Translations under genes and position numbers: made by a program
Notes under the pieces: generated by a model
What the model saw: only the letters and a program-made list of their open reading frames with translations
Told to the model about the DNA's origin: nothing
The model's database searches: none
In this document: positions 13,050 to 64,000 of the stretch, piece after piece
How positions within the stretch are numbered: the first letter of the stretch is position 1
Layout: every line of letters begins with the position of its first letter
Origin: Patescibacteria group bacterium
Lineage (GTDB): Bacteria; Patescibacteriota; Minisyncoccia; Phycocordibacterales; UBA918
DNA length: 64,000 bases
NCBI GenBank assembly: GCA_019750255.1
Contig: JAIEOU010000006.1
Location: forward strand, 52,142-116,141
Direction: 5' to 3'

Positions 13050-13101
13050 GTTACACAACCACCGCACTCCAAATGGAATGAGGGGCTATTTTAAATTATA
13101 A

Positions 13102-13135
13102 GCGACACGCCTCCCAGAAATGGGAGGCGTGTCGC
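13102..13135. terminator. Intrinsic terminator hairpin (stem gcgacacgcctccca / tgggaggcgtgtcgc, loop gaaa) flanked by A/T-rich sequence. It lies downstream of the cohesin-like gene and immediately upstream of the giant gene start.
   Basis: Perfect 15-bp inverted repeat seen directly in the sequence. The minus-strand side is followed by ttataatttaaaat. Confidence 0.6.
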
Positions 13136-13161
13136 TAAATTCTGGGGATGAATCCAGAAAC

Positions 13162-14706: not shown

Positions 14707-14708
14707 AT

Positions 14709-15176
14709 TTATACAGGCCGCGAAGCACGCTTCTCTTGAGTAACTCGCAATCGCACCCTTTCTTTCTCCTCCGGCTTCAGTAGTGGGAGCGTTAATATTA
14801 AAACACCATTTTTTATCTTTGCTTCCGCTTTCTCAATGTCTACACTCTCCGGCAATATAATACGTCGGTAGAAATCTCCCCAAATACATTCCTCAGCCAC
14901 AAACGCACCCTGCACTTTCTTCTTCGGAAAAACTAAATATTCAGGGCGCACTCTCCTGCCCTCAATAAGAATGATATCTGCGTCGCCTTCAATCGAAACA
15001 TGCACGTCATTCATATCAGCGCCAGCTGATTGGGCATACACGACAATCAAACGGTCACTTTGAAATACATCAACATCAAGTTGGGCAACTTTATCAACTG
15101 CAGTTTCTTCCGCTGCTGATTGTAGCGCGTCGCCGGATTTAACACCTCTACCTTTGAGTCGCTGCAGAAAGGACAT
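14709..15176 (-). CDS. Small heat-shock protein, Hsp20/alpha-crystallin family
   Basis: 155-aa ORF with an alpha-crystallin domain and the signature 'GVLILTLPLLKPEE'. Its stop is 2 nt from the start of the cohesin-like gene. Confidence 0.8.
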   Translation of the reverse strand: MSFLQRLKGRGVKSGDALQSAAEETAVDKVAQLDVDVFQSDRLIVVYAQSAGADMNDVHVSIEGDADIILIEGRRVRPEYLVFPKKKVQGAFVAEECIWGDFYRRIILPESVDIEKAEAKIKNGVLILTLPLLKPEEKERVRLRVTQEKRASRPV

Positions 15177-15354
15177 ATGTGTACAGTATATGGTATTGCA
15201 TAGTTTTTTACGTTACGTTTACCCACAGACATAATAAAGTTTAACCACCTTTCTTTTCGAACGAAGCGATGCAATCCAATGCCGCCTTAGCACGTCGCAG
15301 CCACTCGTTATACATACATCAACGCAAGGACGTTACCGGCTAAAGTATAGACAT

Positions 15355-15398
15355 GCAGGTTGCCGCCACTACTTTACGCGCTTTGATGCGCAAAAGTA
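15355..15398. terminator. Imperfect hairpin (cactactttacgcgc ... gcgcaaaagtagtg) downstream of the dockerin protein gene; possible terminator
   Basis: Inverted repeat seen in the sequence. There is no strong T-tract, so confidence is low. Confidence 0.3.
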
Positions 15399-15555
15399 GT
15401 GACAAGGAGAGCTAAGGAGACCGTAGGTCGACTACAGCTTCCTTGGTCAAACACTTCAATATATTCGACCTTCAGAGGGAGAATATATTGACTTAGTGTT
15501 TGTAGGCAACTGACGAAGTAAACTATAGTCGGCCTACGGCCTCGTTAGTTCCACT

Positions 15556-17466: not shown

Positions 17467-17675
17467 ATATATGTATTGTACCGTGCTACAAAACGAAACC
17501 ACCCCGTCATGCACAGTGAGCAGAAGCAAGGAGGGCGAAGGACGACTATTGTTTTGCTTATGCAAGCGCTTCAGCAGATTCTACTTTTAAGAGGAGAATA
17601 TGCTGGTAGCGACTTGCCTAGTAAAGTGAGTTATGTGTGACAATAGCAACACATCGGCCGATGCACTAGAAACTC

Positions 17676-19481: not shown

Positions 19482-20306
19482 TTACCGTACACAGCGAAAT
19501 CCAATCGCCTCCCCAGTAAACTCTGGTGGAGTATGGGCATGAACAGCATGCACACCAGCGTCTGCTCGACTTCCGTAAAATCCGCCCCGAATCATCCCAT
19601 AATTTCCTTGCGGTTCAGACCAAAAATAGGCAGTCCCGTATACATTTCCGGCACTCTCGTCACTCGTCATTATGGCCACTCCGCTGACATCAGCTTGCGC
19701 CACATACCCCGATGGCGGGAGTGGCCGATCACGAAACTGCCCCGCCACCACATCATCTTCTACCCACTCCCAGACGTTACCAACCGCATCATACACTCCC
19801 GCTGCCGAACGACAATCTGACGCCTCACCCGTCTTCCCGACCGCACCGGTTGCCGTACGACACGCACTCTCTTTGGTATCAAGCGCAAGCGTGTACCATT
19901 CAGCAGCGGTTGGTAACCGCTTGCCGGCTCGGGCGCACAGACGTTGTGCATCACTGCGCGCTACCGAACGCCACGGAACCGCTCCGGGTACACTAGCGAT
20001 CCCACATGCAGCCGCTTCGATATTGCTACTAGTATCAAGTGATCGTGAGGGTTCCGGATGTGGACAGTCACTAAGGGCAGAGGCTTCATATTGATCCGCA
20101 CACACAAATGTCCTTCCGGTTGCGACCTCAACCATCCCGTCGGGACAGACCCCATCATTTGTACTACCAATAAGCTGGGCAAGCATGGTTGACTGTGATC
20201 CGCGCCACGTGTCTGAAGCATCGATACCAAGCGCCGTAATAACGAGCGCACCCATGATAACCCCAATTATTCTTAGTTGTTTCATAACTAGAGAGACAGT
20301 GCGCAC
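19482..20306 (-). CDS. Secreted/membrane-anchored FGE-sulfatase (SUMF1/formylglycine-generating-enzyme) fold protein, paralogue 1
   Basis: The sequence carries 'GKRLPTAAEWYTLA', 'AVGNVWEWVEDD', 'MIRGGFYGSRADAG' and 'IGFRCVR', which are hallmark FGE-sulfatase domain motifs. It has an N-terminal signal/anchor. An alternative start Met8 at 20285 would remove the overlap with the upstream paralogue. Confidence 0.8.
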   Translation of the reverse strand: MRTVSLVMKQLRIIGVIMGALVITALGIDASDTWRGSQSTMLAQLIGSTNDGVCPDGMVEVATGRTFVCADQYEASALSDCPHPEPSRSLDTSSNIEAAACGIASVPGAVPWRSVARSDAQRLCARAGKRLPTAAEWYTLALDTKESACRTATGAVGKTGEASDCRSAAGVYDAVGNVWEWVEDDVVAGQFRDRPLPPSGYVAQADVSGVAIMTSDESAGNVYGTAYFWSEPQGNYGMIRGGFYGSRADAGVHAVHAHTPPEFTGEAIGFRCVR

Positions 20307-21112
20307 CGGAAACCTACCGCAGCACTCGCGAATTCAGGAGCTACCGCAGCGTGGAGGGTATACACACCAGCATCATCCCGACTGCCATGGAAACCGCCGC
20401 GCATGAGCGCAAACGTCCCTACCGAATCAGCCCAAAGATAGTCATTGTTGTAGACAGCATCACCAGTGGACGCAGTAGCCGTAGGCACTCCTTCTGGAGA
20501 CACCGCCGTTACAAAACCTTCGGGCGGTAGCGCAGTCCCCTCGAATGCTCCCACTCTGGCTTCTCCAGCTACCCACTCCCAAACATTTCCGACCATATCA
20601 TACACAGCCATACCAGATAGGCATTCGGTAGAAGCTCCGGTCTTTGTAAGTCCACCGTTTACGTTACACGAAGCGCTACTATCGGGTGTACCGCGGGCCG
20701 CCAAATACCATTCGTGAGAGGTAGGAAGCCGTTTACCGGCCCTAGCACACAGCTGCTCGGCCTGCACCCGCGCAACCTGGACCCACGGCAACTGGAGCGG
20801 TCTAGGCACGGGGGAACACTCTCCATCATTGGCATTCGCAGCGGTTTCCACACTACTTGCCGGTACAGCAAATGGGCATTCTCTACTTGGACTCACTTCA
20901 TAGGCGTCGATACAAAACCTCATTCGATTCGGATTCTCAATTTCGACCATCCCGGTTGGACACGTCGCAGTGGTAACATCACGAGCCAAGAGACCAAGTG
21001 CCGATTGTGACCCACGCAAAAGATCGGTGGCGTCGATACTTACGCTCGTGAGCGCAATAATTCCCACCGTTACTAAAAAGAAGCGCACCGAGCGCGAGAC
21101 ATACCTCATCAC
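20288..21112 (-). CDS. FGE-sulfatase (SUMF1) fold protein, paralogue 2
   Basis: The sequence carries 'GKRLPTSHEWYLAARG', 'MVGNVWEWVAGE', 'LMRGGFHGSRDDAG' and 'VGFRCALSL', with an N-terminal anchor 'FFLVTVGIIALTSVSI'. Confidence 0.8.
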   Translation of the reverse strand: MMRYVSRSVRFFLVTVGIIALTSVSIDATDLLRGSQSALGLLARDVTTATCPTGMVEIENPNRMRFCIDAYEVSPSRECPFAVPASSVETAANANDGECSPVPRPLQLPWVQVARVQAEQLCARAGKRLPTSHEWYLAARGTPDSSASCNVNGGLTKTGASTECLSGMAVYDMVGNVWEWVAGEARVGAFEGTALPPEGFVTAVSPEGVPTATASTGDAVYNNDYLWADSVGTFALMRGGFHGSRDDAGVYTLHAAVAPEFASAAVGFRCALSL

Positions 21113-21150
21113 ACTTCATAGTATAGCGCGACCTTAGTCCTGAACGACCA

Positions 21151-22002
21151 TTACTGCACATCACGCACACACCTAAATCCCACACCAGCAGCAGCAAAAT
21201 CAAGCGCTACCGACATGTTTTGAGCAAACACACCCCCGTCACTGCCGCTTGTGTAAAATCCTCCACGCAACATTCCGCGGACCCCTTCATGCTGGACCCA
21301 GGCATAGTCATCACCAAACGCCGGGACGGGCTGATTGCTGGTCTTTAAGACCACACCACCATCATCGACCAGTTCAACATATCCTGACATCGGAACGTGG
21401 CGCCCTTCAATCATTCCGTCACTCACGGTATCACCCATCCATTCCCATACATTTCCGACAAGATCATGGACCCCGAGTGGCGAAACGCAGTTCGCACTAC
21501 CCGTCAAGGCTGGGCTTGTGGCATCCAGAACACAGGATTCTGTGTCAGCCTGACCGACGGCAACGCGGTACCATTCCTGTGCCGTTGGTAGCCGCTTCCC
21601 CGCTCGAGCGCACAGCTGGGTTGCTTCGGTATAACTGACAAACCGCCACGGTTCTTGCCCGGGCTGACTAACCGGTACACAGGCCGGTGTTTCCACATTG
21701 CTCACAGTGGCACTATCGCCCGTTGCGCTACGGTACGGACAGGTGTGTGCAGGACTGGCTTCATAGCTATCAATACACAGCGCATACGCGCCAAATCGCA
21801 ACAGCACCTCGTGCTCGTTACAAGGCCCACTACTGGTCACTGCTGAACCCATGAGTTTGCCGGAAATGCCGTTAGCCATATCAGATGCCTGAATACCCAC
21901 CGTCGATAGCACGAACGCTCCAAGACCGATGAGTAAACCCTTATGCCAATTCCGTCTTTTGGCGCGTGGTGTCATAGAGCTCACGTGACCTGACGAAATC
22001 AA
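21151..22002 (-). CDS. FGE-sulfatase (SUMF1) fold protein, paralogue 3
   Basis: The sequence carries 'GKRLPTAQEWYRVAVG', 'LVGNVWEWMGDT', 'MLRGGFYTSGSDGG' and 'VGFRCVRDVQ'. An N-terminal signal follows 'MTPRAKRRNWHKGLLIGLGAFVLS', so the start is possibly at the internal Met (21975). Confidence 0.8.
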   Translation of the reverse strand: MISSGHVSSMTPRAKRRNWHKGLLIGLGAFVLSTVGIQASDMANGISGKLMGSAVTSSGPCNEHEVLLRFGAYALCIDSYEASPAHTCPYRSATGDSATVSNVETPACVPVSQPGQEPWRFVSYTEATQLCARAGKRLPTAQEWYRVAVGQADTESCVLDATSPALTGSANCVSPLGVHDLVGNVWEWMGDTVSDGMIEGRHVPMSGYVELVDDGGVVLKTSNQPVPAFGDDYAWVQHEGVRGMLRGGFYTSGSDGGVFAQNMSVALDFAAAGVGFRCVRDVQ

Positions 22003-41657: not shown

Positions 41658-42161
41658 ATGAAAGACCGACTGCTCTCATATTATAAGAACGACTTTTTGC
41701 GCCATAACGTCATCTTTTTTATTGGTTCTATGACGGTGGCGGTACTCAACTATGTCTACCACCCCATCGTCAGCCGCCTCCTTTCAGTTGAGGAATTTGG
41801 TGAACTGCAAGCCTACTTCTCTCTCATTGTACAAATTGGGGTTATTTCCGGCGTGTTTGGGCGCATCATCCTTAACATAAAGACCAATATCTCCGATACC
41901 GATGACGGTCAAATCGTTGTTAGTCACCTGTATTCCCTGTCTACCATTGTGACAGCTCTCATTGCCGCCACTCTCATAATCTTTTCTCCATACATCGGTG
42001 CCTTCTTTAACCTGCCCGGCACCATTGGCCTCCTCCTTACCGGCGCAATCCTCATCATCTCCATTCCCCTTACTTTTGCCAAGTTTGAACTTCAAGCGAT
42101 GTTTCTCCGGAGACCGGGACTCCGGGATTTTGAAGTCGACGCCTGCCACATCCTCATCTGA
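41658..42161 (+). pseudogene. 5' fragment of a Wzx-like polysaccharide-biosynthesis/oligosaccharide flippase (MOP superfamily) gene, truncated after ~150 codons by the tandem repeat at 42105
   Basis: The N-terminus 'MKDRLLSYYKNDFLRHNVIFFIGSMTVAVLNYVYHPIVSRLLSVEEFGELQAYFSL' is typical of ~450-aa flippases. The reading frame runs into repeat sequence at codon ~150 and stops, and no remainder lies downstream. Confidence 0.55.
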
Positions 42162-42332
42162 ACCGCGGCCTCGGCCGCAACCCTGCCGTCAGGAGATCCC
42201 TCCTGACGGCAGTTTTTTCTCCGGAGACCGGGACTCCGGGATTTTGAAGTCGACGCCTGCCACATCCTCATCTGAACCGCGGCCTCGGCCGCAACCCTGC
42301 CGTCAGGAGATCCCTCCTGACGGCAGTTTAAC
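42105..42332. repeat. Perfect tandem duplication of a 114-bp palindrome-rich element (2 copies; the unit contains tctccggaga, gcggcctcggccgc and ccgtcaggagatccctcctgacgg hairpins)
   Basis: Copies at 42105..42218 and 42219..42332 are identical by eye. The ORF-track peptides 'FSGDRDSGILKSTPATSSSEPRPRPQPCRQEIPPDGS' x2 are read-through artefacts of this repeat. Confidence 0.85.
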
Positions 42333-49500: not shown

Positions 49501-51285
49501 CTACTTTTTCTTTCGATCAGTCTCCCTGAGATACTGCTTGCGCAAACGCACACTCTGCGGGGTGACCTCGAGATATTCATCGTCAGCCATAATTTCAAGG
49601 CCTACTTCGATTGAAAGTGACCGTGGTGGCACGAGGTTGATCGCATCGTCAGAACCAGAGGCGCGCATGTTGGTGAGCTGCTTTCCCTTCGTTGGATTGA
49701 CCGTCATTTCCTCACCTTTACTCGTGTTTCCCACCACCATACCTTCGTACACTTCAGTACCAGGCGTGATGTAGAGCTGGCCACGGTCCTGGAGACCATA
49801 GAGCGCAAAACCAAGCGCCTTGCCTTGTACCATTGAAATCATTGAACCAACCTGGCGCTTCTTGATTTCACCCGCGTATGGACGGAAACCTAGCACGCGT
49901 GAGGCAAGGATACCTTCACCCTTGGTATCAACCACAAACTGGTTCTTGTAGCCGAGGAGACCGCGAGTTGGTCCTTCGAAAATGAGACGTACCTGATTTT
50001 CGTGAGTAATCATGTTTACCATCACAAAGCCGCGGTTACCGAGGCGTTCAATCACAGGACCCTGGAATTCAGACGGAATGTCAGCCGTTACTTCTTCAAA
50101 CGGTTCGAGCTTGTGTCCATTCTCTTCCTTAATAATTACGCGAGGCTGTGATACCGCAAGTTCGTAGCCTTCACGACGCATGTTTTCAAGGAGAATCGAA
50201 ATATGCATTTCGCCACGACCACGGACTTCAAAGGTATCGCCAGACTCAAAATCAACCTGGAGACCTACGTTTACCTCAAGTTCCTTTTCGAGACGATCCT
50301 TAATCTGGCGTGAGGTGACAAACTTGCCTTCTCGACCAGCAAACGGTGATGAGTTTGGCATGAACTCGAGTGCAATTGTTGGTTCATCAACCTTGATCGA
50401 CGGGAGAGGTTCGGTGGCTTCGCTGTCGGTGAGCGTGTCACCAATATTGATATCAGGGAAGCCAGCAATCATCACAATGTCGCCCGCAAATACTTCAGCG
50501 GCTTCAAGCTTAGACACGCCCTTAAAGGTCGACATCTTCACGACCTTGCCTTTCTTTACCGTGTCCTCGCCTTCGTGCTTCACAAAGAGCGCCTGGTTAC
50601 TCTTTACCGAGCCTTCACAGACGCGGGCTACCGCGAGACGACCGAGAAAGTTGTCGTAGCCAAGGTTAAATACCTGGGCACGGAGCGATTCCCCTGCCAC
50701 ATACGGTCGTGCCGCTGGCACCATCTCGAGCACCACATCAAGCAGCGGTGAGAGATCTACCATTTCGTCACCGAGATTGCGCTTCGCCTTCCCTTCACGC
50801 CCAATGGCATAAACAGTGGTGAAATCGCATTGCTCCTCATTGGCACCGAGCTCAATAAAGAGTTCAAGTACCTGCTCTTCAGTCCGAGGAATGTCAGCCG
50901 CTGGCTTATCAATCTTGTTTACCACCACAATTGGCTTTAGACCAAGCTCGAGTGACTTCTTGAGCACAAAGCGAGTCTGTGGCATGGGGCCTTCCTGCGC
51001 GTCTACAATGAGGAGCACCGAGTCAATAGAGCGAAGTACACGCTCCACTTCAGACCCGAAGTCGGCGTGGCCCGGGGTATCAACAATGTTGATTTTCGTA
51101 CCCTTGTAGTCAATTGAAGTATTCTTGGCGTAAATGGTAATACCACGCTCTTGTTCAAGCGCGTTACTATCCATTGAGGCGTCTCCCTCGCGGGCGCCTG
51201 TCTGGTCCATGAGCGCGTCGGTCAAGGTGGTCTTGCCGTGGTCCACGTGCGCGATAATGGCGATATTACGAATCTCCTGTGACAT
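49501..51285 (-). CDS. typA: Translational GTPase TypA/BipA
   Basis: 594-aa ORF. 'IRNIAIIAHVDHGKTTLTDAL' is the G1 motif, followed by 'DTPGHADF' and 'NKIDKP'. An EF-G-like domain architecture follows. Confidence 0.95.
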   Translation of the reverse strand: MSQEIRNIAIIAHVDHGKTTLTDALMDQTGAREGDASMDSNALEQERGITIYAKNTSIDYKGTKINIVDTPGHADFGSEVERVLRSIDSVLLIVDAQEGPMPQTRFVLKKSLELGLKPIVVVNKIDKPAADIPRTEEQVLELFIELGANEEQCDFTTVYAIGREGKAKRNLGDEMVDLSPLLDVVLEMVPAARPYVAGESLRAQVFNLGYDNFLGRLAVARVCEGSVKSNQALFVKHEGEDTVKKGKVVKMSTFKGVSKLEAAEVFAGDIVMIAGFPDINIGDTLTDSEATEPLPSIKVDEPTIALEFMPNSSPFAGREGKFVTSRQIKDRLEKELEVNVGLQVDFESGDTFEVRGRGEMHISILLENMRREGYELAVSQPRVIIKEENGHKLEPFEEVTADIPSEFQGPVIERLGNRGFVMVNMITHENQVRLIFEGPTRGLLGYKNQFVVDTKGEGILASRVLGFRPYAGEIKKRQVGSMISMVQGKALGFALYGLQDRGQLYITPGTEVYEGMVVGNTSKGEEMTVNPTKGKQLTNMRASGSDDAINLVPPRSLSIEVGLEIMADDEYLEVTPQSVRLRKQYLRETDRKKK

Positions 51286-51520: not shown

Positions 51521-51996
51521 TTAGTCTCCACCAATTTTCTTATCAAGATTACTCATGTAGTTAATCTTCTCCTTAGCTTCAGCCTTTAGCAACTTAGAAC
51601 ACGTATTGGAATATGGACTAAGTACCATTTCCAATTTCCCTTCGCTATATAGGTGTCTTACTAGAGAATAAAAATCACCATCACTAGTGACAATAACGGC
51701 CTTATCATAATTATCTTTTTCAGGCAAAGCCACAGCACCAAATCTGCATCACAATTTCCTTTTGCTTTTCCTCCAGAATCAAAAATTATTGGCTTAAACA
51801 CTAAAACATAGCCTGCATTTTGTAGGGCCGTGAACAGTTCTTGATTAGTATCTAAAAATCCTATAAATAAATAGGCGATATTGACAGAATACTTATCTTT
51901 TAGGTAGACCCTAAACTTTTTCCAGTCCAGTCTCCAACCCAATGATTTGATACCCAGATGAAGGTTTTGTGCATCAATAAACGCAACGTTGTTCAT
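51521..51996 (-). pseudogene. NYN (LabA-like, PF01936) domain protein gene disrupted by a -1 frameshift (split into 51661..51996 and 51521..51733)
   Basis: The N-terminal half has 'VAFIDAQNLHLGIKSLGWRLDWKKFRVYLKDKY...GNCDADLVL'. The C-terminal half 'ALPEKDNYDKAVIVTSDGDFYSLVRHLYSEGKLEMVLSP' continues in another frame. The junction at ctg|tgg/gtggctttgcct (~51725-51735) is consistent with a 1-nt deletion. Confidence 0.6.
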
Positions 51997-54491: not shown

Positions 54492-57400
54492 TTACTCAGG
54501 AAGCGGTGCGTCAGTGTCTGGCTCTGTCACCACTACTTCCGCTGGAACTGGTTCAGCTGGTACTGAATCATCAATCGGTTCAATGACTGGTTCTTCCACC
54601 TCCTCTACCACATTCACTTCCTCCTCTTCTGCAATCACTTCTTCACTCACCTCCTCGGGCAGTTCGGGGGTAGAAGTCGAAGTCGAAGTCGTATGAGGCA
54701 CGAGGGGCAGAGGCTCAGGTGACAGAGACGGTTCTGGGGTTGGGTCAGACTTATCTAGAATTTCTTGAAGCTGGCCTTTGTTGATACAAACATCTTCGAT
54801 ACACAACTCATCCGTCTCGACTTTTTTCGTCTTAAAGAACTCAGCAAAACCTGTCACTCTATCAGCCAACTCTTGCACGGCCTTCACCACCACCGCCACC
54901 AGATTACCGTACGAAATACTTTTAGAGCCTTCAACTCCATCAACGACTTCTGGAATGATGAGTTCCAGCTCTTGCGCAATGAACCCTACACGCATATCCT
55001 CGATATTTTTCATCTTGTAGGAACGCGGCTGCAGTTGCATGAGCGTATCAAGTCCATAGGTGAGCGTCTGTACATCTTCGTTATGTTCAACATCGGCTGG
55101 GGTGGTCCATTCACCAGCCACATTTAGTGTTGCGACGTTCAGCGTCCCACTACTGTCGCCTCCAAAGAACGAAAGCACGCCACTTGTGGCCATCGATAGA
55201 CTGCGGAAGTCAGTGTTCCCTGACTCAGAAATGATAAATCCGCCAAAGTAATCATTGCTTGACTGGGTCACGGAGAGGCGAGCGGCTGGGGTTGTGGTAC
55301 CAATACCAACATTGCCATCATCGGTAACGGTGACACCGAGTTCACCCAATGCTTCCTGTACTACATACGCCCAACGGGAAAGTTTTGAAGTAATTTTCTC
55401 TAAGAATGAAACCCCAAGGAAGGTGTGTGGGTTTACATAGACCAAAACCTTGCCTACCCCACTATCATCCAACGTTGTCGTGTCCAGATCTTCGAGCGCA
55501 ATACCCACGACACGGCCCGCATCAGTCGCTTTCATACCCACACCAGACCGTCCCGAGGACGTGATGTAGTCACCTTTTTTAATCATGCCGTTTTCCAGAG
55601 ATACCTTTGTTGGCACTCGACCGACGAGCGCTACTGGTTGTTTTTCAGCCGTACCGCCAGTGATATCAATGCCTAGTTTAATACCCGGAGTGGTGGTGAT
55701 GATACCAAGCGCATTGTCGTCGTAGGCATCAGTTGATTTCGCAATTAGACCGGCTGAGGACTGAGCTACGGTAACGATATCACCCGCCTCAAGCGTGTCG
55801 TCGTCGGTCGGGAAATATTCAGCAATGTCTGCCCCGCCCGAGTTCCATGAGCCACCGGTCTGCGTATAGGCATCACCTGCGGCACTAAAGCGGAAAAGAT
55901 TTTGGCCATTGAGAGAAAAGGCTGCCAGATCCGTACTATTAACTTGAAATACCTTATACGAAGTAATAGTTGGTCTAATAAAGACATTCGCTGGATTCAC
56001 CGATGTCGTACCTCCTTCGGCTTGTAGCGGGAGTCGGTTGTACACAACAGTGGACTCGCCCATGTAGACATTCTTTCCCGCATTAGGCTGCTGAGCAATT
56101 GGTCGTCTCATCACAACACGCACCTGCATCCACGCATCGCCACTTGCAGGGTTAATTAAGTCTCCGCTTTTCTTAATCGTTCGCCATGTGGATGTTCCCA
56201 ATCCAATCTCACTAGCGGCGGTTCGAACCGATATTGAGATGACACCCGGCCTGAATGTATCAGCGTTGCCGGTCCGGGCAAAAGCGGACTGACTATTTAA
56301 CTGACTATTATTAATGTGTTCCGAAAGGTATGTTCCCGTTGTAAGCCAACCAGCATCGTAGATTGCGGTAGTAAAGCCACCGCCCAGCACCATCATGTAG
56401 CGACCATCTGGACGCTGGATAGAGTGAGCACCCTGACCAGGTGTATTTCCAACACCAGGTCCGGTACTCATGGTATTTGCTACAGGATCGTAGATTGCGG
56501 TATTCGAACTGCCACCAAGTACCAGTAAGAACTTACCATCAGGACGCTGGATAGAGTGAGAACCGTTGCCAGCTACTGCCGGAAGAGCTGGTCCGGCAAC
56601 CGAGGTGTTCGTTACTGGATCGTAAATCGAGGTATTAGTACCGCCGGCACCAAACACCACCAAGAACTTACCATCCGGGCGTTTAATAGAGTGTCCGCCC
56701 GTACCAATACTACCCGCTGCGGTCCCCACTAGAGCTGGGCCAGTGTACATAGTATTAATAACTGGGTCGTAGATCGAGGTATCGGTATTTAATCCCGACA
56801 CTATCAAAAATGTGCCGTCAGGGCGTTGAATTGAGTGGGCGCCAAGATTAACTCCACTTCCTGCTATGTTCGGGCCTGGACTCATGGTATTCGCTACCGG
56901 GTCGTAAATAGTTGTTTGAGTACCGTTGTTACCCAACACAATCAAGAACTTTCCATCTGGACGCTGAATAGAGTGAGAGCCCACATTGGCCGAGCGTCCA
57001 ATCGCAGGTCCAGCCACTATCGTATTAGCAACCGGATCGTAGATGTTAGTGAGACCGCCATTATTACCCACCACAATCAAGAACTTTCCATCTGGACGCT
57101 GAATAGAGTGAGAGCCATTAGAAGGATTGCCACTAGCTATGGTCGGTCCTGCCGTGATGGTATTGGTGTCTGGATCGTAAATATTAGTAGCGTTACTATT
57201 GGCAGCTACCACGATCAAGAACTTTCCGTCTGGACGCTGAATGGAGTGAGCGCCTAAACTAGATGTGTTTGCCAAAGTTGGTCCTCCACTAAACACCCCT
57301 CGGTCGTCACTCTGCGTGGAGCTACTGACAAGTCCTATTCGGTACGGTAATGACAACCCATTATCTCCACCAATCAAACTAGCGAGTAGTGGCACAGAAG

Positions 57401-60400
57401 ATGAGGCGAAACTGAGTGCGGTAGACGTAGCAAAACCCGTTGCAAAATCAGCATTTTCCTTTCGAAAGACCGACTGATTATCAATCGTGAAGTTGTAAAG
57501 AGCCGGTTGAGCGAAATCTCGTCGGTATTTGGTATCGCTCTCTCCAAGCCAGGTGTTAGTTGGTGTAAACGGCTGTCGTGGTTGCGCATGTGGTGCAACT
57601 GATCGTGAGAGGGTGACCCGCACCTTTGCCCACTGCGCCCCATTTACCGGACGAATCGGAAAACGATTACTCGTCGTTGTGGCGTACGGTGCGCTTGTTA
57701 GTCCCCCTTGCGTAGTAGCCGTCTTTATAGCCACCTCAATTTTACCTCCTCCATTACCATTAAAGTTAAGGAGTGAGCTTTGATTAAGTTGAGAAATATT
57801 TAAGTCTTCTGATTCGTACGAGCCCGACATTACCCAGCCTGCGTCGTAGAGGGTGGAGGCAGTACTATTACCCAAAACCATCAAGTACCGTCCGTCCGGC
57901 CGCTGGAGCGTGTGAGCACCCAAACCTGCAGACGCCGTGAGGGTTGGGCCGGCCGTCATCGTATTTGCAATCGGATCGTAGATGTTGGTGGCTGTACCCC
58001 CACTAAGCACCACCAAGAACCTACCATCGGGGCGTTGGATAGAGTGAGCGAATGGCGAGACGGTTGCGGTGAGGCTTGGGCCGGTACTAAAAGTATTATT
58101 TATAGGGTCATAAATAGCGGTATTGGTTCCAAGAAATCCTAGCACCACCAAGAACCTACCATCGGGGCGTTGGATAGAGTGACCACCACCGCCAAGAATA
58201 TTAGGCAGCGTCGGCCCTGCCGCTATAGAATTAGCGACTGGGTCATAAATGTTGGTAACAGTACCGTTACCGATTAACACTAAGAACGTACCGTCTGGAC
58301 GCTGGATAGAATGCGAGCCTAGTGTAGCGGCGCTCGTTAACGTCGGGCCGCCACTTACTGTATTAGCCACCGGGTCATAAATATTAGTAGCAGTGGAACC
58401 ACCCGCTACAATCAAGTACGTACCGTTCGGACGTTGAATAGAGTGAGCACCCATGCCTGAGATACCGTTAGTGAGGGCTGGGCCTTCTATTATAGTATTG
58501 GCTACAGGGTCATAAATATTAGTTCTGGTAGGGGCGCCGTTACCTAAGACAATTAAGAACTTTCCGTCTGGACGCTGGATAGAGTGCGCACTTTGATAGG
58601 CTAGAGTGGTTAGGTTGGGCCCGGCACTAGTAGAGTTAGTCACCGGATTGTAGATAAGGGTATCTACGGTGTTGAATCCCCGCACAATTAAGAACGTACC
58701 ATCTGGGCGCTGAATGGAGTGGGCGCCATCACCGAGACTTGAGGATCCTAAAGTTGGGCCGGTGCTCATCACGCCTGCACCAAGATTGGTAGTCGTGGCA
58801 AACAACAACTTTATTTCATTAGAAGTTGTGGCTATGCCAGCACTAACACTGGCACCACTTACGGAAAAATCAGCGGTTGTTTGTTTTGTTACAGAGGACG
58901 TAGAGGTAGCATTCACAGAGAGTAACGCCAGTGGTCCCGTCGTACCAATTCCAAGCCTGCCTTGTGAATCTAACGTCATGCCGGTCACGCCATTAGTTCT
59001 AAACAGCAAGGATTGATTGTCATTAGTGCCAAAGATGGCCGTAGTTCCAAAAGCATTACCACCCTGAACAAAACTGTTGGCGGCACTACTGGTAATCCAT
59101 TGGGTTGACGTACCGGTTGATTGCAGAATTTGACCAACAGTTCCAGTAGCATTAGTACTATCGCGCAGTGCACCTGTAATGGTAAGGGCGGTGGTTGTAG
59201 CGGCGGTAGCCGTAACTCTTGTCAGGGTCGATAGTCCACTAGCGTTAAGGGTGACAACGTTAGAGGTGCTCGCGTTAGTAGTGGTGGCATTAAGCGTAAC
59301 AAAATTTGAAACGCCGGTTGCAGTCAAGCCAGCAAACGTTGGAGCCGTATTAAAAACAACTGTACCAGTACCGGTCTCGTCAGACAACAAGGCGGCTAAC
59401 TGAGCGGAGTTGGTGAAGGCGGCTGAGAACCCAAGTGATGAGGTGGCTGCCCATGCAGTCCCGTTGGTGGTTGAGGTGAGGACACTACCCACTGCCCCAG
59501 TACTTGAAGACGAATCGGCAAAGCGGCCGTTGAGACTGAAGTCGCCAGCCACAGTGAGCCTAGTAGCTGTAGCGTTGGTAGCCAAAAGTGAAGTCAAAGT
59601 AGAGAGGCCGGTGACGTTTAGCGTACCGATTGCGCTGATATTAGCACCCGTGAGATTACCAGTGAAGAACCCGTTACCAACTACTGATAGGCGATTTGTA
59701 GGTGAACTTGTACCTAGACCAAGGTTACCCATAGAATTCAACCGCATCGCTTCAGCTAAAGGTGTTTGTGTAACACCGCCACTGCCAACGAGATTTATGG
59801 CAATAGCTGCCTGTACCCAGTTATAATTTCCGGCCGTAGTCCAATTCATAATAGTGTTCGTAGTTACACCTTGACGATACGATCCGGCGGCAAACACCGA
59901 CTGCACGTCGTTCCATAAAAGTGTTTGTGCCGGATCGACTGTGGGTCCGCCCGTCTCAGTAGACACAACATCTAGTACGAGAGTGGACGGCGTAGAGCTT
60001 ACATTTACGCTCTGTGCGGTTCCACCATTTGTGGCTGTTGCAACCGCGTAAATTGGAGAAGCCTGATTAACGTTTGAGAGCGTTATAGCGGTCATTTGCG
60101 TGGCTCGGAAGCTAGAAAAGTTGGCGGTCAACGTGTTACTCCCAGTTGTAGGGTTCACCAAGTACCACACCTCAACCCGGTTAGCATTTGAACCATTTCC
60201 CACCGACGTAGCGAGCGTAAGCGGGGTGCCGTTATATGTTATAGACGATACGGTTGAACCATTTGAGGCAAAAGCCACCTGGACTACAAGTAGCGTATTA
60301 TCTACGGCGGCTGACACTGCGTGACTAGTCGTCAACTGATTAGTGTTACCGTTTTTAATAGTTGTGGTATTTTGAACATTTACCGGAGCCGCAACTGCAT

Positions 60401-61346
60401 TTCCAGTACGAAAGACCAAGTTACCGGAACCTCCAATGCCTGTTCCGCGTGATGCATCAAACCGTATATCACCACCGGCAACATCAGTACCGGAAGCATT
60501 CACTCCGCGCAGCGTGAATAACGACGGCGCACCACCTTCTCCTGTCCCAACCACCATGTCTGCCTTCGCAAGGTGAAGCCCCGCCACTGGGTTACTTACG
60601 CCAATCCCCACGTTGCCACCAGAACTAATCCGCATTACTTCACTGCCAGCATTGAGCCACTTATAGCCCGAACCCTGACTACCGTTAATCTGAAACATTC
60701 CATCGGAAGCGTTGCGACCTAGATCGAAAAAGAATTGACCGGTATTTTCGCTAACACGAATTTGGGTAGTAGTTCCATTTGCAATGTGCAAAGTATTCCC
60801 TGGCGTACTCGTCCCCACTCCTAGGTTCGTTCCCGTAAAGACGAAGTTCGATGACGAAGCAAGGGTGTTAACCGCACTCGTGTATAAAACAGTGTTCGCT
60901 CCCCCAAGTGCGGAGACTCCGGTACCACCCCGGTTTGCAGCGAGAGTACCGGTAGTATCACTAAGCGCAATCCCGAATGTTGACGTCGACACCCACTGCG
61001 ACGTCGCACCGTTCGTCTGCAGGATTTGTCCGACCGTACCAAGGGAGTTAGAAGAATCACGGAGCGCACTGATGCGCAGCGCCATGGCGGTTGATGAGCC
61101 AGTGAGGACAATACCGTCGGTTGCAGTGAGAGGATTGAGGAACACGCCGTTATCGACCCAGTTACTACCGCCGCCCCCTCCAAGGCCAAGAGTTGAAGTA
61201 GCTACCCAAGCAGTACCGGTTGCGGTAGCGGTGAGGACACTGCCTACTGCCCCAGTGCTTGAAGATGAGTCAGCGAAGCGGCCAATGAGACGCATGTCGC
61301 CGGCGACAGTGAGGCGTGCCGACGGTGAGGTTGTGCCGATGCCCAA
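54492..61346 (-). CDS. Giant surface protein (2,284 aa). It has tail-fibre-like N-terminal repeats ('IGTTSPSARLTV'), Gly/Thr/Ser-rich beta-helical-like regions, two seven-bladed Kelch-like beta-propellers ('HSIQRPDGKFLIV...NIYDPVANT' x14), a C-terminal peptidase-S74 intramolecular-chaperone auto-processing domain and an acidic Pro/Glu tail.
   Basis: The ORF starts at TTG and has no signal peptide. There are 14 repeats of 'AHSIQRPDG[KT]FL[IV]V.G......IYDP..NT', and each set of seven ends 'IYDAGW'. The C-terminal 'LQPRSYKMKNIEDMRVGFIAQELELIIPEVV...ISYGNLVAVVVKAVQEL' is the S74 chaperone domain signature. Confidence 0.85.
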   Translation of the reverse strand: MGIGTTSPSARLTVAGDMRLIGRFADSSSSTGAVGSVLTATATGTAWVATSTLGLGGGGGSNWVDNGVFLNPLTATDGIVLTGSSTAMALRISALRDSSNSLGTVGQILQTNGATSQWVSTSTFGIALSDTTGTLAANRGGTGVSALGGANTVLYTSAVNTLASSSNFVFTGTNLGVGTSTPGNTLHIANGTTTQIRVSENTGQFFFDLGRNASDGMFQINGSQGSGYKWLNAGSEVMRISSGGNVGIGVSNPVAGLHLAKADMVVGTGEGGAPSLFTLRGVNASGTDVAGGDIRFDASRGTGIGGSGNLVFRTGNAVAAPVNVQNTTTIKNGNTNQLTTSHAVSAAVDNTLLVVQVAFASNGSTVSSITYNGTPLTLATSVGNGSNANRVEVWYLVNPTTGSNTLTANFSSFRATQMTAITLSNVNQASPIYAVATATNGGTAQSVNVSSTPSTLVLDVVSTETGGPTVDPAQTLLWNDVQSVFAAGSYRQGVTTNTIMNWTTAGNYNWVQAAIAINLVGSGGVTQTPLAEAMRLNSMGNLGLGTSSPTNRLSVVGNGFFTGNLTGANISAIGTLNVTGLSTLTSLLATNATATRLTVAGDFSLNGRFADSSSSTGAVGSVLTSTTNGTAWAATSSLGFSAAFTNSAQLAALLSDETGTGTVVFNTAPTFAGLTATGVSNFVTLNATTTNASTSNVVTLNASGLSTLTRVTATAATTTALTITGALRDSTNATGTVGQILQSTGTSTQWITSSAANSFVQGGNAFGTTAIFGTNDNQSLLFRTNGVTGMTLDSQGRLGIGTTGPLALLSVNATSTSSVTKQTTADFSVSGASVSAGIATTSNEIKLLFATTTNLGAGVMSTGPTLGSSSLGDGAHSIQRPDGTFLIVRGFNTVDTLIYNPVTNSTSAGPNLTTLAYQSAHSIQRPDGKFLIVLGNGAPTRTNIYDPVANTIIEGPALTNGISGMGAHSIQRPNGTYLIVAGGSTATNIYDPVANTVSGGPTLTSAATLGSHSIQRPDGTFLVLIGNGTVTNIYDPVANSIAAGPTLPNILGGGGHSIQRPDGRFLVVLGFLGTNTAIYDPINNTFSTGPSLTATVSPFAHSIQRPDGRFLVVLSGGTATNIYDPIANTMTAGPTLTASAGLGAHTLQRPDGRYLMVLGNSTASTLYDAGWVMSGSYESEDLNISQLNQSSLLNFNGNGGGKIEVAIKTATTQGGLTSAPYATTTSNRFPIRPVNGAQWAKVRVTLSRSVAPHAQPRQPFTPTNTWLGESDTKYRRDFAQPALYNFTIDNQSVFRKENADFATGFATSTALSFASSSVPLLASLIGGDNGLSLPYRIGLVSSSTQSDDRGVFSGGPTLANTSSLGAHSIQRPDGKFLIVVAANSNATNIYDPDTNTITAGPTIASGNPSNGSHSIQRPDGKFLIVVGNNGGLTNIYDPVANTIVAGPAIGRSANVGSHSIQRPDGKFLIVLGNNGTQTTIYDPVANTMSPGPNIAGSGVNLGAHSIQRPDGTFLIVSGLNTDTSIYDPVINTMYTGPALVGTAAGSIGTGGHSIKRPDGKFLVVFGAGGTNTSIYDPVTNTSVAGPALPAVAGNGSHSIQRPDGKFLLVLGGSSNTAIYDPVANTMSTGPGVGNTPGQGAHSIQRPDGRYMMVLGGGFTTAIYDAGWLTTGTYLSEHINNSQLNSQSAFARTGNADTFRPGVISISVRTAASEIGLGTSTWRTIKKSGDLINPASGDAWMQVRVVMRRPIAQQPNAGKNVYMGESTVVYNRLPLQAEGGTTSVNPANVFIRPTITSYKVFQVNSTDLAAFSLNGQNLFRFSAAGDAYTQTGGSWNSGGADIAEYFPTDDDTLEAGDIVTVAQSSAGLIAKSTDAYDDNALGIITTTPGIKLGIDITGGTAEKQPVALVGRVPTKVSLENGMIKKGDYITSSGRSGVGMKATDAGRVVGIALEDLDTTTLDDSGVGKVLVYVNPHTFLGVSFLEKITSKLSRWAYVVQEALGELGVTVTDDGNVGIGTTTPAARLSVTQSSNDYFGGFIISESGNTDFRSLSMATSGVLSFFGGDSSGTLNVATLNVAGEWTTPADVEHNEDVQTLTYGLDTLMQLQPRSYKMKNIEDMRVGFIAQELELIIPEVVDGVEGSKSISYGNLVAVVVKAVQELADRVTGFAEFFKTKKVETDELCIEDVCINKGQLQEILDKSDPTPEPSLSPEPLPLVPHTTSTSTSTPELPEEVSEEVIAEEEEVNVVEEVEEPVIEPIDDSVPAEPVPAEVVVTEPDTDAPLPE
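56300..58800. repeat. Array of ~14 DNA repeats (~140 nt period) encoding the Kelch-like blades (recurring ccatctggacgctggatagagtg)
   Basis: Recurring near-identical 25-30-nt blocks on the plus strand. The plus-strand ORF-track peptides 'ELSIWTLNRV' recur as antisense shadows. Confidence 0.7.
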
Positions 61347-61358
61347 ATTTCCATTATC

Positions 61359-64000
61359 TTAAAGGGTCACCTTCGCCACCCCGGCACTGTCAAATAATTG
61401 TGCCAATAGACCGGTTGTAGTCCCCGCTCCCATCACCGTCAAACGGGCCGGCGTTCCAATAGTAGACGAAATACCGACATTTCCAGTTACTCCACTCATC
61501 ATCAGGGGTGAAACCGTACCATCATTAATATTGTTTGTCGGTTTAAAGAGTAGGTATCTATCCGTAGTCTCTCCCGCCGCAATCATGTACCAATTGTTGA
61601 GCTGACCAGCGCCTTCCATGTAGTACCCAGCTCGCCCTGTCCCGCCGGTTGTTCGGGCATTAACAAACGCGTTAAATGGATCCTCGACCCTGATTTGTTG
61701 ACCAAAGCTATTACCCCCAACAACGTGTACTGGTGCTTGCGGTGCTGCTGTTCCAATCCCGATGGCACCTACAGCAGTATCAGCAAACAAGAGCGGAGTT
61801 GATGACGTACCAACCCTAAGGTTACCCCAGACATCAAGCCTAGTAGATGGCGTACTTGTTCCCACTCCCAAGTTCGTTCCTGTAAAGACAAACAATGATG
61901 AAGTCGCTAAGGTATTGACCGCACTGGTGTACAAAATAGTACCAATCCCCCCAAGCGCGGAGACGCCGGTACCGCCACGGTTAGCAGCTAAGGTGCCAGT
62001 CGTATCACTAAGAGCAATCGCTAAAGACGACGTCGATACACTATCAACCGTACCGTTGGAGGCTACCCGGGCGAGGAAGCCGTTGGTCCAGGTGGTGGTG
62101 GTAGCGAGGTAGATGGTACCGGCAGCCGCGTTTAATGTATTGCCCGACCAGGATAGTCCCGAACCAGCGGTGATGCGAGTACTCGGGGTGTTATAGAAAG
62201 AATTCCAGTTGGTTCCGGAAGCGGACAGGAAACCCTCGTAGCCGGCGGCGTAGCCGAGGGTGAGCGTGCCGCTAGTAGTGACGGGGCCACCGGCGGTGGT
62301 AAAGCCAGTGGGGACGCCGAGGTTGACGGAGGTGACGGTGCCGCCACCGAGCCCGAGACTTCCGGTCGCCACCGTGAGGGCGCCATTTGATTCGATGTAG
62401 AGGCCAACGCCGGTAAAGTCGGTGATCGAGTCACCGTTCATAGTAATGCGCGCAGCGGCCAGCGTGCCGGTCGCGGTAATGTTCGTAGCCACGATACCGT
62501 TAAAGGTCGAGGTGCCAGTAAATGTAGGGGCGTTGTTAAAGACCGCCTGACCCGTCCCCGTTTCGTCAGACAACAACGCCGCTAACTGAGCGGAGTTAGC
62601 AAAGGCGGCCGAGAGGCCTAAGCTTGACGTCGCCACACTATCAACCGTGCCGTTGCTGGCCACTCGAGCGAGGAAGCCGTTGGTCCAGGTGGTGGTGGTA
62701 GCGAGGTAGATGGTACCGGCAGCCGCGTTTAATGTATTGCCCGACCAGGATAGTCCCGAACCAGCGGTGATGCGAGTACTCGGGGTGTTATAGAAAGAAT
62801 TCCAGTTGGTTCCGGAAGCGGACAGGAAACCCTCGTAGCCGGCGGCGTAGCCGAGGGTGAGCGTGCCGCTAGTAGTGACGGGGCCACCGGCGGTGGTAAA
62901 GCCAGTGGGGACGCCGAGGTTGACGGAGGTGACGGTGCCGGCATTGGTTACACAAACACCATTGATTGAAAAGCAGCCACTAGTGAGGTTAACCGTCCCG
63001 CCAAAAGTAGAGGTGGCGGCACCTGACACATTAAGGACATTACCAATAGTGGCAGAGCCTCCAACCACCAAAGTGGTGGCGGTTGTGCTTGTGCTCACAC
63101 TAAGCCTAGTACCGTCGTAGGTAAAGTCAGCTGATTGAGTCAGGACTGAACCAGTCGCGTTCACAAAGGGAATGCTCGCTGCAATGAGGGTATTGGGTGT
63201 ATCAAGTAAGCCGGTATAGGTAATATCAGTTCCACCCACACACACGCCGTTTATTGAAAAACAGCCACCAGTGAGATTAACGGTACCGCCAAAGGTAGAG
63301 GTGGCAGTACCTAACACTGAAACTACATCATTAATTACAGCAGACCCTTCAACCGCGAGTGCATTTGAATTAAAAGTCGAGGAACCAACTACGATACTTG
63401 AAAAAAATGATCCAGCTCTTGTAGTTGATCCAATAACTACCCCATCAATAGAACCGCCGCTCAGCGTGAGTACGTTACTCACATCCGTATCAGTAACACA
63501 GTCTACACAACCACCTCGAGCACGTACGAGAGCCAATGTGTCGACAGAGCTAATTACAGTACCATTAACGGCAATACCTTCACCACCAGAAAAATCAACG
63601 TCTCCTGATTCCCCATTGATGCTCTCAACACCACTAAATTCTTCAGCAATGAACGATACTGTAGGAGCATTGGCCGGACCAGTAATGCGCACATTTGAAC
63701 CGCCTCGCACACGATTAACTACATTCGAAGCAAAGAGCTCACCAGTACCCAAATCAATAGTAGCTCCCCGCGTAACCACCCCTCCAGTTGCCTCGAGCAT
63801 ACCCTGAACCCCTAAGGAACCTGATACAGTCGCTTGCGCTAGTGCGGCCGCACCACTGACCGTCACATTTGTACTCGTTAATGAACCGGCATCTACGTTA
63901 CCTGTTGCTACCACACTACTCATTCTACTCACCCCCAACACTGTTAGCGGCGCCTCAATAGTGGTCGTTCCAAGTGTCGTGCTTAACCCTCGTACGGTAA
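61359..64000 (-). CDS. Giant tail-fibre-like Gly/Thr/Ser-rich surface protein. The N-terminus runs off the right window edge. It shares repeat modules with the 54492..61346 product.
   Basis: >860 aa within the window. 'IALSDTTGTLAANRGGTGVSALGG' and 'SSLGLSAAFANSAQLAALLSDETGTG' are shared with the downstream giant ORF. An internal 199-aa-period duplication is present. The reading frame is open up to position 64000 in this frame. Confidence 0.75.
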   Translation of the reverse strand, partial: TVRGLSTTLGTTTIEAPLTVLGVSRMSSVVATGNVDAGSLTSTNVTVSGAAALAQATVSGSLGVQGMLEATGGVVTRGATIDLGTGELFASNVVNRVRGGSNVRITGPANAPTVSFIAEEFSGVESINGESGDVDFSGGEGIAVNGTVISSVDTLALVRARGGCVDCVTDTDVSNVLTLSGGSIDGVVIGSTTRAGSFFSSIVVGSSTFNSNALAVEGSAVINDVVSVLGTATSTFGGTVNLTGGCFSINGVCVGGTDITYTGLLDTPNTLIAASIPFVNATGSVLTQSADFTYDGTRLSVSTSTTATTLVVGGSATIGNVLNVSGAATSTFGGTVNLTSGCFSINGVCVTNAGTVTSVNLGVPTGFTTAGGPVTTSGTLTLGYAAGYEGFLSASGTNWNSFYNTPSTRITAGSGLSWSGNTLNAAAGTIYLATTTTWTNGFLARVASNGTVDSVATSSLGLSAAFANSAQLAALLSDETGTGQAVFNNAPTFTGTSTFNGIVATNITATGTLAAARITMNGDSITDFTGVGLYIESNGALTVATGSLGLGGGTVTSVNLGVPTGFTTAGGPVTTSGTLTLGYAAGYEGFLSASGTNWNSFYNTPSTRITAGSGLSWSGNTLNAAAGTIYLATTTTWTNGFLARVASNGTVDSVSTSSLAIALSDTTGTLAANRGGTGVSALGGIGTILYTSAVNTLATSSLFVFTGTNLGVGTSTPSTRLDVWGNLRVGTSSTPLLFADTAVGAIGIGTAAPQAPVHVVGGNSFGQQIRVEDPFNAFVNARTTGGTGRAGYYMEGAGQLNNWYMIAAGETTDRYLLFKPTNNINDGTVSPLMMSGVTGNVGISSTIGTPARLTVMGAGTTTGLLAQLFDSAGVAKVTL
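62041..62939. repeat. Near-perfect ~300-bp direct repeat (62041..62342 and 62638..62939; period 597 bp = 199 codons) inside the giant gene
   Basis: Long identical runs (tagcgaggtagatggtaccggcagccgcgtttaatgtattgcccgaccagg...) appear at both positions. The ORF track gives identical 71-aa peptides at 62132..62434 and 62729..62944. Confidence 0.85.

Follow-up and report, generated by a model that had tools for sequence, protein, structure and literature searches.

What kind of protein is encoded where phage-fibre repeats and Kelch-type blades share one very long reading frame in a Patescibacteria genome? The question is raised by a 64,000-nucleotide stretch of DNA, referred to here as the window, that is part of contig JAIEOU010000006.1 of a Patescibacteria group bacterium (assembly GCA_019750255.1). 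A minus-strand open reading frame (ORF) at 54492..61346 of the window encodes 2,284 amino acids (aa). A preliminary description had read it as two seven-bladed Kelch propellers fused to a self-processing tail-fibre domain of the Peptidase_S74 family, in a cellular protein lacking a signal peptide or, alternatively, in a cryptic phage-like or tailocin-like structure. Our analysis points, with a probability of about 60%, to a secreted, presumably trimeric, phage-tail-fibre-like surface fibre of Patescibacteria (Paceibacteria/Parcubacteria) that would work by the mechanism given below. The protein is best read as an adhesive fibre similar to the mosaic adhesive trimer (MAT) fibres of Bdellovibrio, with new heads, and possibly inactivated here by a stop codon. 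The preliminary description overlooked a second chaperone, a phi29-type G2 autochaperone, which is a conserved partner of the propellers. From the N-terminus to the C-terminus, the order is an N-terminal region beyond the window (where a Sec signal is expected), a shaft, two propeller-sandwich heads, the G2 domain, a short second shaft, the S74 domain, a Cys motif and an acidic tail. The features are listed below in this order; residue numbers are those of the 2,284-aa ORF.

61362..64000, minus strand: upstream part of the frame, Gly/Thr/Ser-rich fibre shaft, 879 codons, N-terminus beyond the window
61359..61361, minus strand: in-frame TAA splitting the fibre gene, within the fibre repeat 'VTL*DNGNLGIGTT'
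58746..61346, minus strand: fibre shaft with GNVGIG repeats, aa 1-867, including a beta-rich insert of about 230 aa at aa ~330-560
57831..58745, minus strand: propeller 1, seven Kelch-type blades ending in YDAGW, aa 868-1172
57462..57830, minus strand: beta-sandwich 1, packed after propeller 1, aa 1173-1295 (AlphaFold2 strands at model residues 332-431, with a high predicted local distance difference test score, pLDDT)
57273..57461, minus strand: low-confidence linker between the head modules, aa 1296-1358 (pLDDT < 50 from model residue 435)
56343..57272, minus strand: propeller 2, seven Kelch-type blades ending in YDAGW, aa 1359-1668
55872..56342, minus strand: beta-sandwich 2, a homologue of sandwich 1 with conservation across 22 related loci, aa 1669-1825
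55332..55871, minus strand: phi29 gp12-type (Peptidase_G2-like) intramolecular chaperone, aa 1826-2005
55818..55829, minus strand: DIAE motif, D1840-E1843, corresponding to D692...E695 of phi29 gp12; the predicted autocleavage bond joins A1839 and D1840
55098..55331, minus strand: short stretch of fibre, with a single GNVGIGTTTP repeat, that precedes the S74 domain, aa 2006-2083
54822..55097, minus strand: Peptidase_S74-family chaperone, catalytically degenerate, aa 2084-2175
55080..55097, minus strand: ADVEHN in place of the S-D-x-x-x-K motif (Ser to Ala2084, Lys to Asn2089)
54495..54821, minus strand: C-terminal tail with the Cys motif 'ELCIEDVCINKGQLQEIL' and an acidic, Pro/Glu/Thr-rich low-complexity region, aa 2176-2284, followed by the stop codon (54492-54494)

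The two propellers of the preliminary description were confirmed. A pattern search recovered 14 copies of H[ST][IL][QK]RP[DN]G at residues 876-1641, in two sets of seven with a spacing of 44-48 residues, and each set is closed by YDAGW (aa 1167 and 1663), which replaces the usual YDPxxNT. The Pfam model Kelch_6 matched the two propellers at 32.4 and 37.6 bits (cut-off 25.3) and Kelch_2 was found at 29.7 bits. An AlphaFold2 model of residues 860-1365, calculated with 30 homologues (mean pLDDT 82.8), contained 28 strands in seven four-stranded blades, followed by a beta-sandwich and then a disordered linker. From the classical Kelch signature, the blades have the GG/GN and the Tyr of 'IYDP' and lack the Trp, which indicates a divergent Kelch subfamily. 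The propellers, with lengths of 308 and 313 aa, share 178 identical residues. While the 13-aa cores of the blades are 80% identical in protein, 47% of the identical residues use different codons, and the DNA copies of the blades are 60-76% alike. These differences in codons indicate that the similarity has been maintained by purifying selection on the protein and is not the product of a recent duplication.

The propeller and its sandwich were compared with the PDB using Foldseek. The best matches were AA5 copper radical oxidases (5c86, 6ryx and 1gof, E-values 1e-13 to 1e-11), and the ordinary Kelch domains of KLHL12 and KLHL20 were also matched (1e-12), all of them at about 14-20% identity. 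A Pfam search of the window protein gave no match to Glyoxal_oxid_N or DUF1929. Homologues of the head module, with 31-49% identity and 500-870 aa, are proteins of three kinds. In the first, found in Paceibacterota and Chloroflexi, the N-terminus has a prepilin-type methylation motif and the module is C-terminal; in the second, an N-terminus that resembles a signal peptide by eye is followed by a Pfam IPT/TIG domain and the module is again C-terminal; the third is a two-propeller fragment. All the proteins listed in this comparison are shorter than about 900 aa, and the giant relatives described below came from locus scans and a search of representatives. Single propellers with 30-36% identity are present in tail-fibre-like ORFs on IMG/VR contigs, and matches in BFVD include predicted Kelch propellers of phage virion proteins and of a Hokovirus collagen-repeat protein. 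Because the module is found on extracellular and fibre-borne proteins, we infer that the heads are binding modules.

The propellers are set within a phage-tail-fibre-like protein, as had been proposed. Five GN[VL]GIG fibre repeats were found in the 2,284-aa frame by pattern search, and residues 773-860 of the shaft resemble the beta-helix of Bdellovibrio Bd3182 (8ojn_C, E 7.7e-4). The only Pfam match of the shaft was a weak one to CBM_X2. A search of the protein against NCBIfam produced no matches, and one against PHROGs produced weak matches confined to the C-terminal part.

The domain that follows the second head is similar to the chaperone found in the pre-neck appendage protein of phage phi29. 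A profile of 24 G2-like domains compared with the PDB retrieved this protein (6qz9_A, E 2.1e-5; 3gqh_A, E 2.5e-4) and aligned 'GGADIAEYFPTDD' of the window with 'TWSDFAEYFESLD' of phi29. The cleavage motif is GGA/DIAEYF in the window and TWS/DFAEYF in phi29, where the slash marks the bond and counting along the alignment identifies the phi29 residues as S691, D692 and E695. D1840, A1842 and E1843 are invariant in the 24-domain alignment. An AlphaFold2 model of the window domain (pLDDT 83.1) had 3gqh_A and 3suc as its top two PDB matches in Foldseek (3gqh_A, E 2.4e-5, template modelling (TM) score 0.47/0.59). The cleaved fragment 3gqh begins at DFAEYF and consists of 163 aa, that is, 854 - 691, and the 'pre-mature', uncleaved 3suc has DFAQYF. 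E695 of gp12 presumably takes part in the reaction, in agreement with the residues seen in the PDB sequences (Q in 3suc, E in 3gqh). Mature gp12 ends at residue 691 (PMC6542822), and its C-terminal domain is an autochaperone that is cleaved off after folding (PMC3357383). Among the homologues, the G2-like domain is the C-terminus of many short fibre proteins, and three of the homologues scored 26.2 (P0106), 24.3 (P0150) and 23.6 bits (P0146) with PF11962, Peptidase_G2 (cut-off 25). The motif is intact in the window domain, and cleavage between A1839 and D1840 is predicted.

The S74 domain has had a different fate. Pfam model Peptidase_S74 (PF13884) matched residues 2090-2135 with 33 bits for the whole ORF and 36.8 bits for the C-terminal segment (cut-off 22), as the preliminary description anticipated, and 212 phage records match the region at about 30% identity. 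The 'GFIAQE...PEVV' core is conserved. In alignments with six phage fibres found by tblastn and 75 cellular homologues, the scissile Ser and the Lys located five residues later are present in every sequence (75/75 cellular, 6/6 phage), while the window has Ala2084 and Asn2089 ('TTPADVEHNEDV'). The corresponding Ser-to-Ala substitutions block cleavage in T5 pb1 (S1264A), where Lys1269 activates the Ser (PMC4690869), and in Bdellovibrio Bd3182 (S782A), where the family motif is SDxxxK (PMC10769870). The window domain appears to have kept its fold and lost the Ser-Lys dyad and, because both catalytic residues are absent, self-cleavage is unlikely, contrary to the auto-processing role initially assigned to it. 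The ten-residue cleavage loop is 21% identical to that of the 14 closest homologues and its flanks are 67% identical; among these homologues themselves, the values are 78% and 69%, respectively. Since the flanks are conserved, the cleavage site has diverged specifically, which indicates a selective loss of cleavage and not a general decay. The substitution is not a local assembly error, since ADVEHN is also found in the Logan assembly of run DRR851322, where 1,865/1,866 bases match the window. The domain is not the C-terminus of the protein, as had been stated; 109 residues follow it. Here, and likewise in its closest relatives among Patescibacteria, the sequence continues after S74 with an 'LCxxxxCxxxxQL..LL' motif and a tail rich in Pro, Thr and Glu. 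A single-sequence PDB search of the C-terminus produced matches too weak to place catalytic residues.

The 2,284-aa ORF is not a complete coding sequence. ORF 61359..63941 shares its frame and only a single TAA separates them; upstream of the TAA, the frame is open to the edge of the window for 879 further codons, for a total of at least 3,168. Long repeat modules are common to both sides ('IALSDTTGTLAANRGGTGVSALGG...' and 'SAAF.NSAQLAALLSDETGTG'). Where 'VTL*DNGNLGIGTT' has the stop, the residue found in other repeat copies is Ser, Asn, Asp or Thr. The TTG 'start' of the 2,284-aa ORF encodes the Leu of GNLGIG and falls inside a repeat ('GNLGIGTT'). The boundary is an artefact of ORF calling that does not correspond to a real protein boundary. 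Because the frame is continuous across the single TAA and the repeat modules are alike on both sides, the region analysed is the distal two-thirds of one giant gene of at least 3,168 codons. The lack of a signal peptide, for which another export route had been suggested, is explained by a true N-terminus located beyond the window.

The TAA is present in the assembly, since the protein deposited at NCBI, MBY0310078.1 ("tail fiber domain-containing protein"), has 2,284 aa. When metagenome contigs were searched for exact matches, no independent sequence spanning the site turned up, and the stop could be an assembly error or a minority variant in the population. An alternative genetic code was considered and rejected: the codon is TAA, the other genes in the window are normal in table 11, and tables 4 and 15 add only spurious ORFs. 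Barring such an error or variant, this copy of the gene may be inactivated upstream of the heads. The upstream fibre part also contains a direct repeat of 300 nucleotides (62029-62328 and 62626-62925, 97% identical, 597 nucleotides apart), which encodes a duplicated module of about 100 aa and probably makes this place prone to recombination or assembly errors.

The combination of propellers and G2-like domain is widespread in Patescibacteria. Scans of Patescibacteria genome assemblies and metagenomes, with a 5-sequence alignment as query, located about 28 giant ORFs of 1,400 to > 5,000 aa, all of them with the order propeller, propeller, G2-like domain and all with (S/G)GAD[ILV]AE. An exhaustive search with the second head module produced 1,633 representatives at E <= 1e-3 and 124 at <= 1e-30. 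The best 150 of the 1,633 matches include 82 representatives of at least 1,200 aa. Two or more propellers are present in 71 of these 82 and the G2-like domain in 59; DxAE was found in 59 of their 61 G2-like domains. An S74 domain is present in just two, the window protein and P0301, and the dyad is intact in the latter. Two further members with a double propeller, G2 and S74, identified in the locus scans, L009 (at least 5,096 aa) and L058 (at least 3,479 aa), also have an intact S....K. The sequence after the G2-like domain is mosaic across the relatives, and L018, L022 and L066 end with this domain, like the phi29 protein. A second, downstream G2-like copy in L007 (aa ~2507-2698) and L008 (aa ~678-861) reads SGIAEHF and has lost the Asp, and the copy next to the propellers keeps the Asp of DxAE, a situation that parallels the dead S74 domain of the window. 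The complete relatives L014, L018, L022 and L024 begin with Sec-type signal peptides, as judged by eye. Two of the homologous genes, L008 (ORFs 1-5952 and 5777-8965) and L012 (ORFs 2-1369 and 1120-6168), are split by frameshifts within the propeller repeats; fibre genes of this repetitive type are repeatedly found disrupted or mis-assembled. From these comparisons of sequences, the double propeller, the sandwich and the G2-like domain appear to be the conserved core of a giant Patescibacteria family.

The gene is located in a cellular, chromosomal context. The TypA protein encoded nearby (49501-51285) is 84-91% identical to proteins of Paceibacteria, Pacebacteria, Parcubacteria, Nomurabacteria or Patescibacteria, NCBI assigns MBY0310078.1 to a 'Patescibacteria group bacterium' on a 123-kb contig, and the neighbours are housekeeping and surface genes. 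Besides TypA, they code for an RluB-like pseudouridine synthase, an ECF sigma factor, an LD-carboxypeptidase, an M23 peptidase, cohesin and dockerin proteins, an ABC exporter, GH18 and GT2 enzymes and DUF11 surface proteins. This evidence supports the cellular origin favoured in the preliminary description. The same description had set against its reading the lack of an S74 match, or an ordinary chromosomal context combined with a signal-bearing N-terminus upstream; the context turned out to be chromosomal, and the S74 match is above threshold. The two closest TypA relatives (L158 and L159) keep the TypA-RluB-sigma synteny and three small flanking genes and do not have the fibre gene; other genes are found at this site (DUF2157 and GDYXXLXY in L158). 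Its absence at the syntenic site indicates that the fibre gene is accessory, specific to a strain or species.

The reading that we favour is the following. The protein would be exported by Sec and would form a trimeric fibre, as is the case with phage fibres and Bdellovibrio MAT fibres, with folding of the trimer nucleated by the C-terminal chaperone domains. The G2-type domain would then cut between A1839 and D1840 and release the last 445 residues, leaving the two propeller-sandwich heads at the distal tip of the fibre, where they could recognise a ligand carried by a host cell or substrate. The S74 domain would act only as a folding aid, without cleavage. Several points weigh against this proposal. 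Trimerisation, cleavage and binding all enter it as inferences; the N-terminus, and therefore any signal peptide or anchor, lies beyond the window; and because of the in-frame TAA the heads may not be made in this organism. The fold similarity to copper radical oxidases leaves room for an enzymatic role of the propellers. The G2-like domain of the window itself (aa 1826-2005) has no Pfam match, and its link to phi29 depends on homologues, a PDB profile match (E 2e-5) and a fold match (TM 0.47-0.59). The residue that precedes the predicted bond (P1) is Ala in the window and Ser in phi29. Furthermore, 290 residues follow the domain in the window and a median of 344 in the relatives, it ends the protein in only 3 of 59 cases, and some proteins hold several copies. 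A domain that is rarely terminal and that can be repeated could equally well be a non-cleaving structural node or a cleavage module.

The most serious alternative is that the TAA turned the fibre gene into a decaying pseudogene, that the degenerate S74 domain is part of this decay and that nothing functional is made. We regard this as unlikely, but it deserves consideration. The stop is located within a conserved repeat and no plausible restart follows it, the TTG being itself within the repeat. Both catalytic residues of the S74 domain are lost and its cleavage loop is far more diverged than the flanks. In addition, the gene is dispensable, as shown by its absence at the syntenic site in the two nearest relatives, and the homologues L008 and L012 are also split, by frameshifts. 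However, 9.5 kb of sequence contain neither a frameshift nor a second stop, and the 14 blades, the G2 motif and the residues that define the S74 fold are all intact. The S74 flanks are as well conserved as those of intact homologues (67% vs 69%), which favours a selective loss of cleavage over general decay, and a single substitution may be an assembly error or a population variant. The S74 domain could in turn be thought to cleave itself still by means of other residues, such as Thr2081/2082 with His2088, given that the fold-defining part is well conserved and the loop 'TTPADVEHN' contains Thr and His. Nonetheless, these candidates are out of register with the catalytic positions, the Ser and Lys are invariant in the 75 cellular and six phage homologues, and one S-to-A change abolishes cleavage in T5 pb1 and Bd3182, all of which make the idea highly improbable.

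It is equally hard to sustain that the gene codes for the tail fibre or receptor-binding protein of an integrated prophage, a tailocin or another phage-derived particle. S74 and G2 chaperones are classic modules of phage fibres, the PHROG searches gave weak tail-fibre matches, related propellers are found on viral contigs, close relatives lack the gene, and the region upstream of it is beyond the window. The preliminary description had suggested looking downstream for phage structural genes, but no capsid, portal, terminase, sheath, tube, baseplate or integrase genes were found in the 54 kb on the visible, downstream side, which carry housekeeping and surface genes instead. Four neighbours had PHROG 'tail' matches that proved to be FGE-sulfatase and GH18 domains. 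Moreover, the complete members of the family have Sec signal peptides, which virion fibres do not need and which also speak against the special export route once proposed, and Patescibacteria assemblies contain many giant cellular proteins of this family. The possibility that the heads are enzymes, copper radical oxidases of the galactose/glyoxal-oxidase type mounted on a fibre, seems remote as well. The AA5 enzymes are the best PDB fold matches (5c86, 6ryx and 1gof, with the E-values given above), there is a weak sequence match to 6ryv, and the distant homologues P0034 and P0035 carry PF07250. Against this, the identity is about 14% and the TM score about 0.5, the window protein has no match to the oxidase families, non-enzymatic Kelch domains match equally well, and seven near-identical blades leave little space for an asymmetric active site.

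As for the adhesive fibre that we favour, the closest known systems are the MAT fibres of Bdellovibrio bacteriovorus, such as Bd3182 and Bd2133, which are cellular S74 fibres (PMC10769870); a cellular S74 fibre is, for this reason, not new. MAT fibres are also cellular, signal-peptide-bearing, chimeric proteins that resemble phage tail fibres, with interchangeable tips, and many end in S74. The match between shaft residues 773-860 and the Bd3182 beta-helix (8ojn) and the mosaic C-termini of the relatives are further likenesses. However, MAT fibres are shorter, the window protein having 3-5 times their length, and tandem Kelch propellers like those of its heads have not been described for them. 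The window protein also has a phi29-type G2 domain beside an S74 domain lacking the SDxxxK found in the S74 members among the MATs, and it belongs to another phylum, Patescibacteria. MAT fibres start with a signal peptide and a conserved beta-rich N-terminal domain of about 130 aa; the comparison covers the window protein from its shaft onwards, as its N-terminus is beyond the window. With phi29 gp12 (PF11962; 3GQH, 3SUC, 6QZ9) it shares the profile and fold matches, the D-x-A-E-Y-F at the start of the domain and the location of the domain after the functional head of a fibre; the identity is about 20%, and the window domain differs in falling below the Pfam model, in not being C-terminal and in its P1 Ala instead of Ser. 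The S74 domains of K1F endosialidase, T5 pb1 and the eukaryotic MYRF have in common with the window the Pfam match, the conserved core and a position after a beta-helical segment. The nucleophile in known members is S911 (endoNF), S1264 (T5 pb1) or S782 (Bd3182), while the window has Ala2084, with Asn2089 in place of the Lys, and, unlike in K1F, T5 pb1 and MYRF, the domain is followed by a Cys motif and an acidic tail, as in the Patescibacteria relatives. Galactose oxidase and other AA5 enzymes (1GOF, 5C86, 6RYX) also have a seven-bladed Kelch propeller directly followed by a beta-sandwich; the likeness is at the level of the fold, with about 14% identity, no match to the family hidden Markov models and highly uniform blades in the window protein. 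The Kelch propellers of phage virion and fibre proteins and of the Hokovirus collagen-repeat protein are likewise carried on fibre or structural proteins. They are, however, single, in proteins of 300-950 aa without the sandwich-plus-G2 arrangement, and viral instead of cellular.

Most Patescibacteria presumably live in attachment to other cells, and we know of few attachment factors in this group apart from type IV pili. The family with a double propeller, a sandwich and a G2-like domain is a concrete, testable adhesin candidate. A wider proposal, which we put forward tentatively and consider doubtful, is that Patescibacteria use giant, self-processing, phage-derived fibres with multivalent tandem Kelch tips as organelles of attachment to their hosts. 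The head module, shared with type IV pilin-like proteins, would be part of a modular adhesin toolkit, and the phi29-type domain would free the fibre from a disposable C-terminal folding cassette in which secondary chaperones, the S74 domain of the window among them, can lose their protease function. In the literature searched, we found no description of giant Patescibacteria fibres with tandem Kelch heads and a conserved phi29-type domain, of two unrelated chaperone types in one protein or of an S74 domain naturally devoid of its dyad; the window protein itself is already deposited under a generic name. A protein with tandem intramolecular chaperones of two unrelated phage types is a natural experiment, and an S74 domain that kept its fold and lost its dyad could help separate the chaperone from the protease role. 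The case also indicates that the label 'tail fiber domain-containing protein', together with an ORF split by a stop, can mask the real architecture.

Other features of the window were observed in the course of the analysis. A second giant ORF, at 3-13085 of the minus strand, has at least 4,361 codons and runs off the start of the window; a reading of its sequence shows a transmembrane helix at the N-terminus, a Pro-rich, acidic region and DUF2341/LamG-like modules in repeated copies, and it has neither a propeller nor an S74 domain. An apparent 11-kb 'ORF desert' at 2145-13162 was discarded since it corresponds to this ORF. Beside it, at 13162-17565 of the minus strand, adjoining genes code for a cohesin-domain protein (514 aa) and a dockerin-plus-Ig protein (669 aa), which suggests a cellulosome-like surface assembly pair. 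Three tandem paralogues of 274, 274 and 283 aa at 19482-22002 (minus strand) have C-terminal FGE-sulfatase domains of the C-type-lectin fold, a fold on which diversity-generating retroelements often act. A perfect two-copy tandem repeat at 42102-42329, with a unit of 114 nucleotides and a hairpin in each unit (CTGCCGTCAGGAG...CTCCTGACGGCAG), is located at the 3′-end of a short, apparently truncated membrane-protein ORF (41658-42161) and may have arisen as a small inserted element or through duplication in the assembly. Finally, a 111-aa ORF at 51661-51996 (minus strand), between TypA and the small genes, has a partial NYN match (23.9 bits, cut-off 24.2; profile positions 5-82 of 145) and looks like the remnant of a truncated gene.

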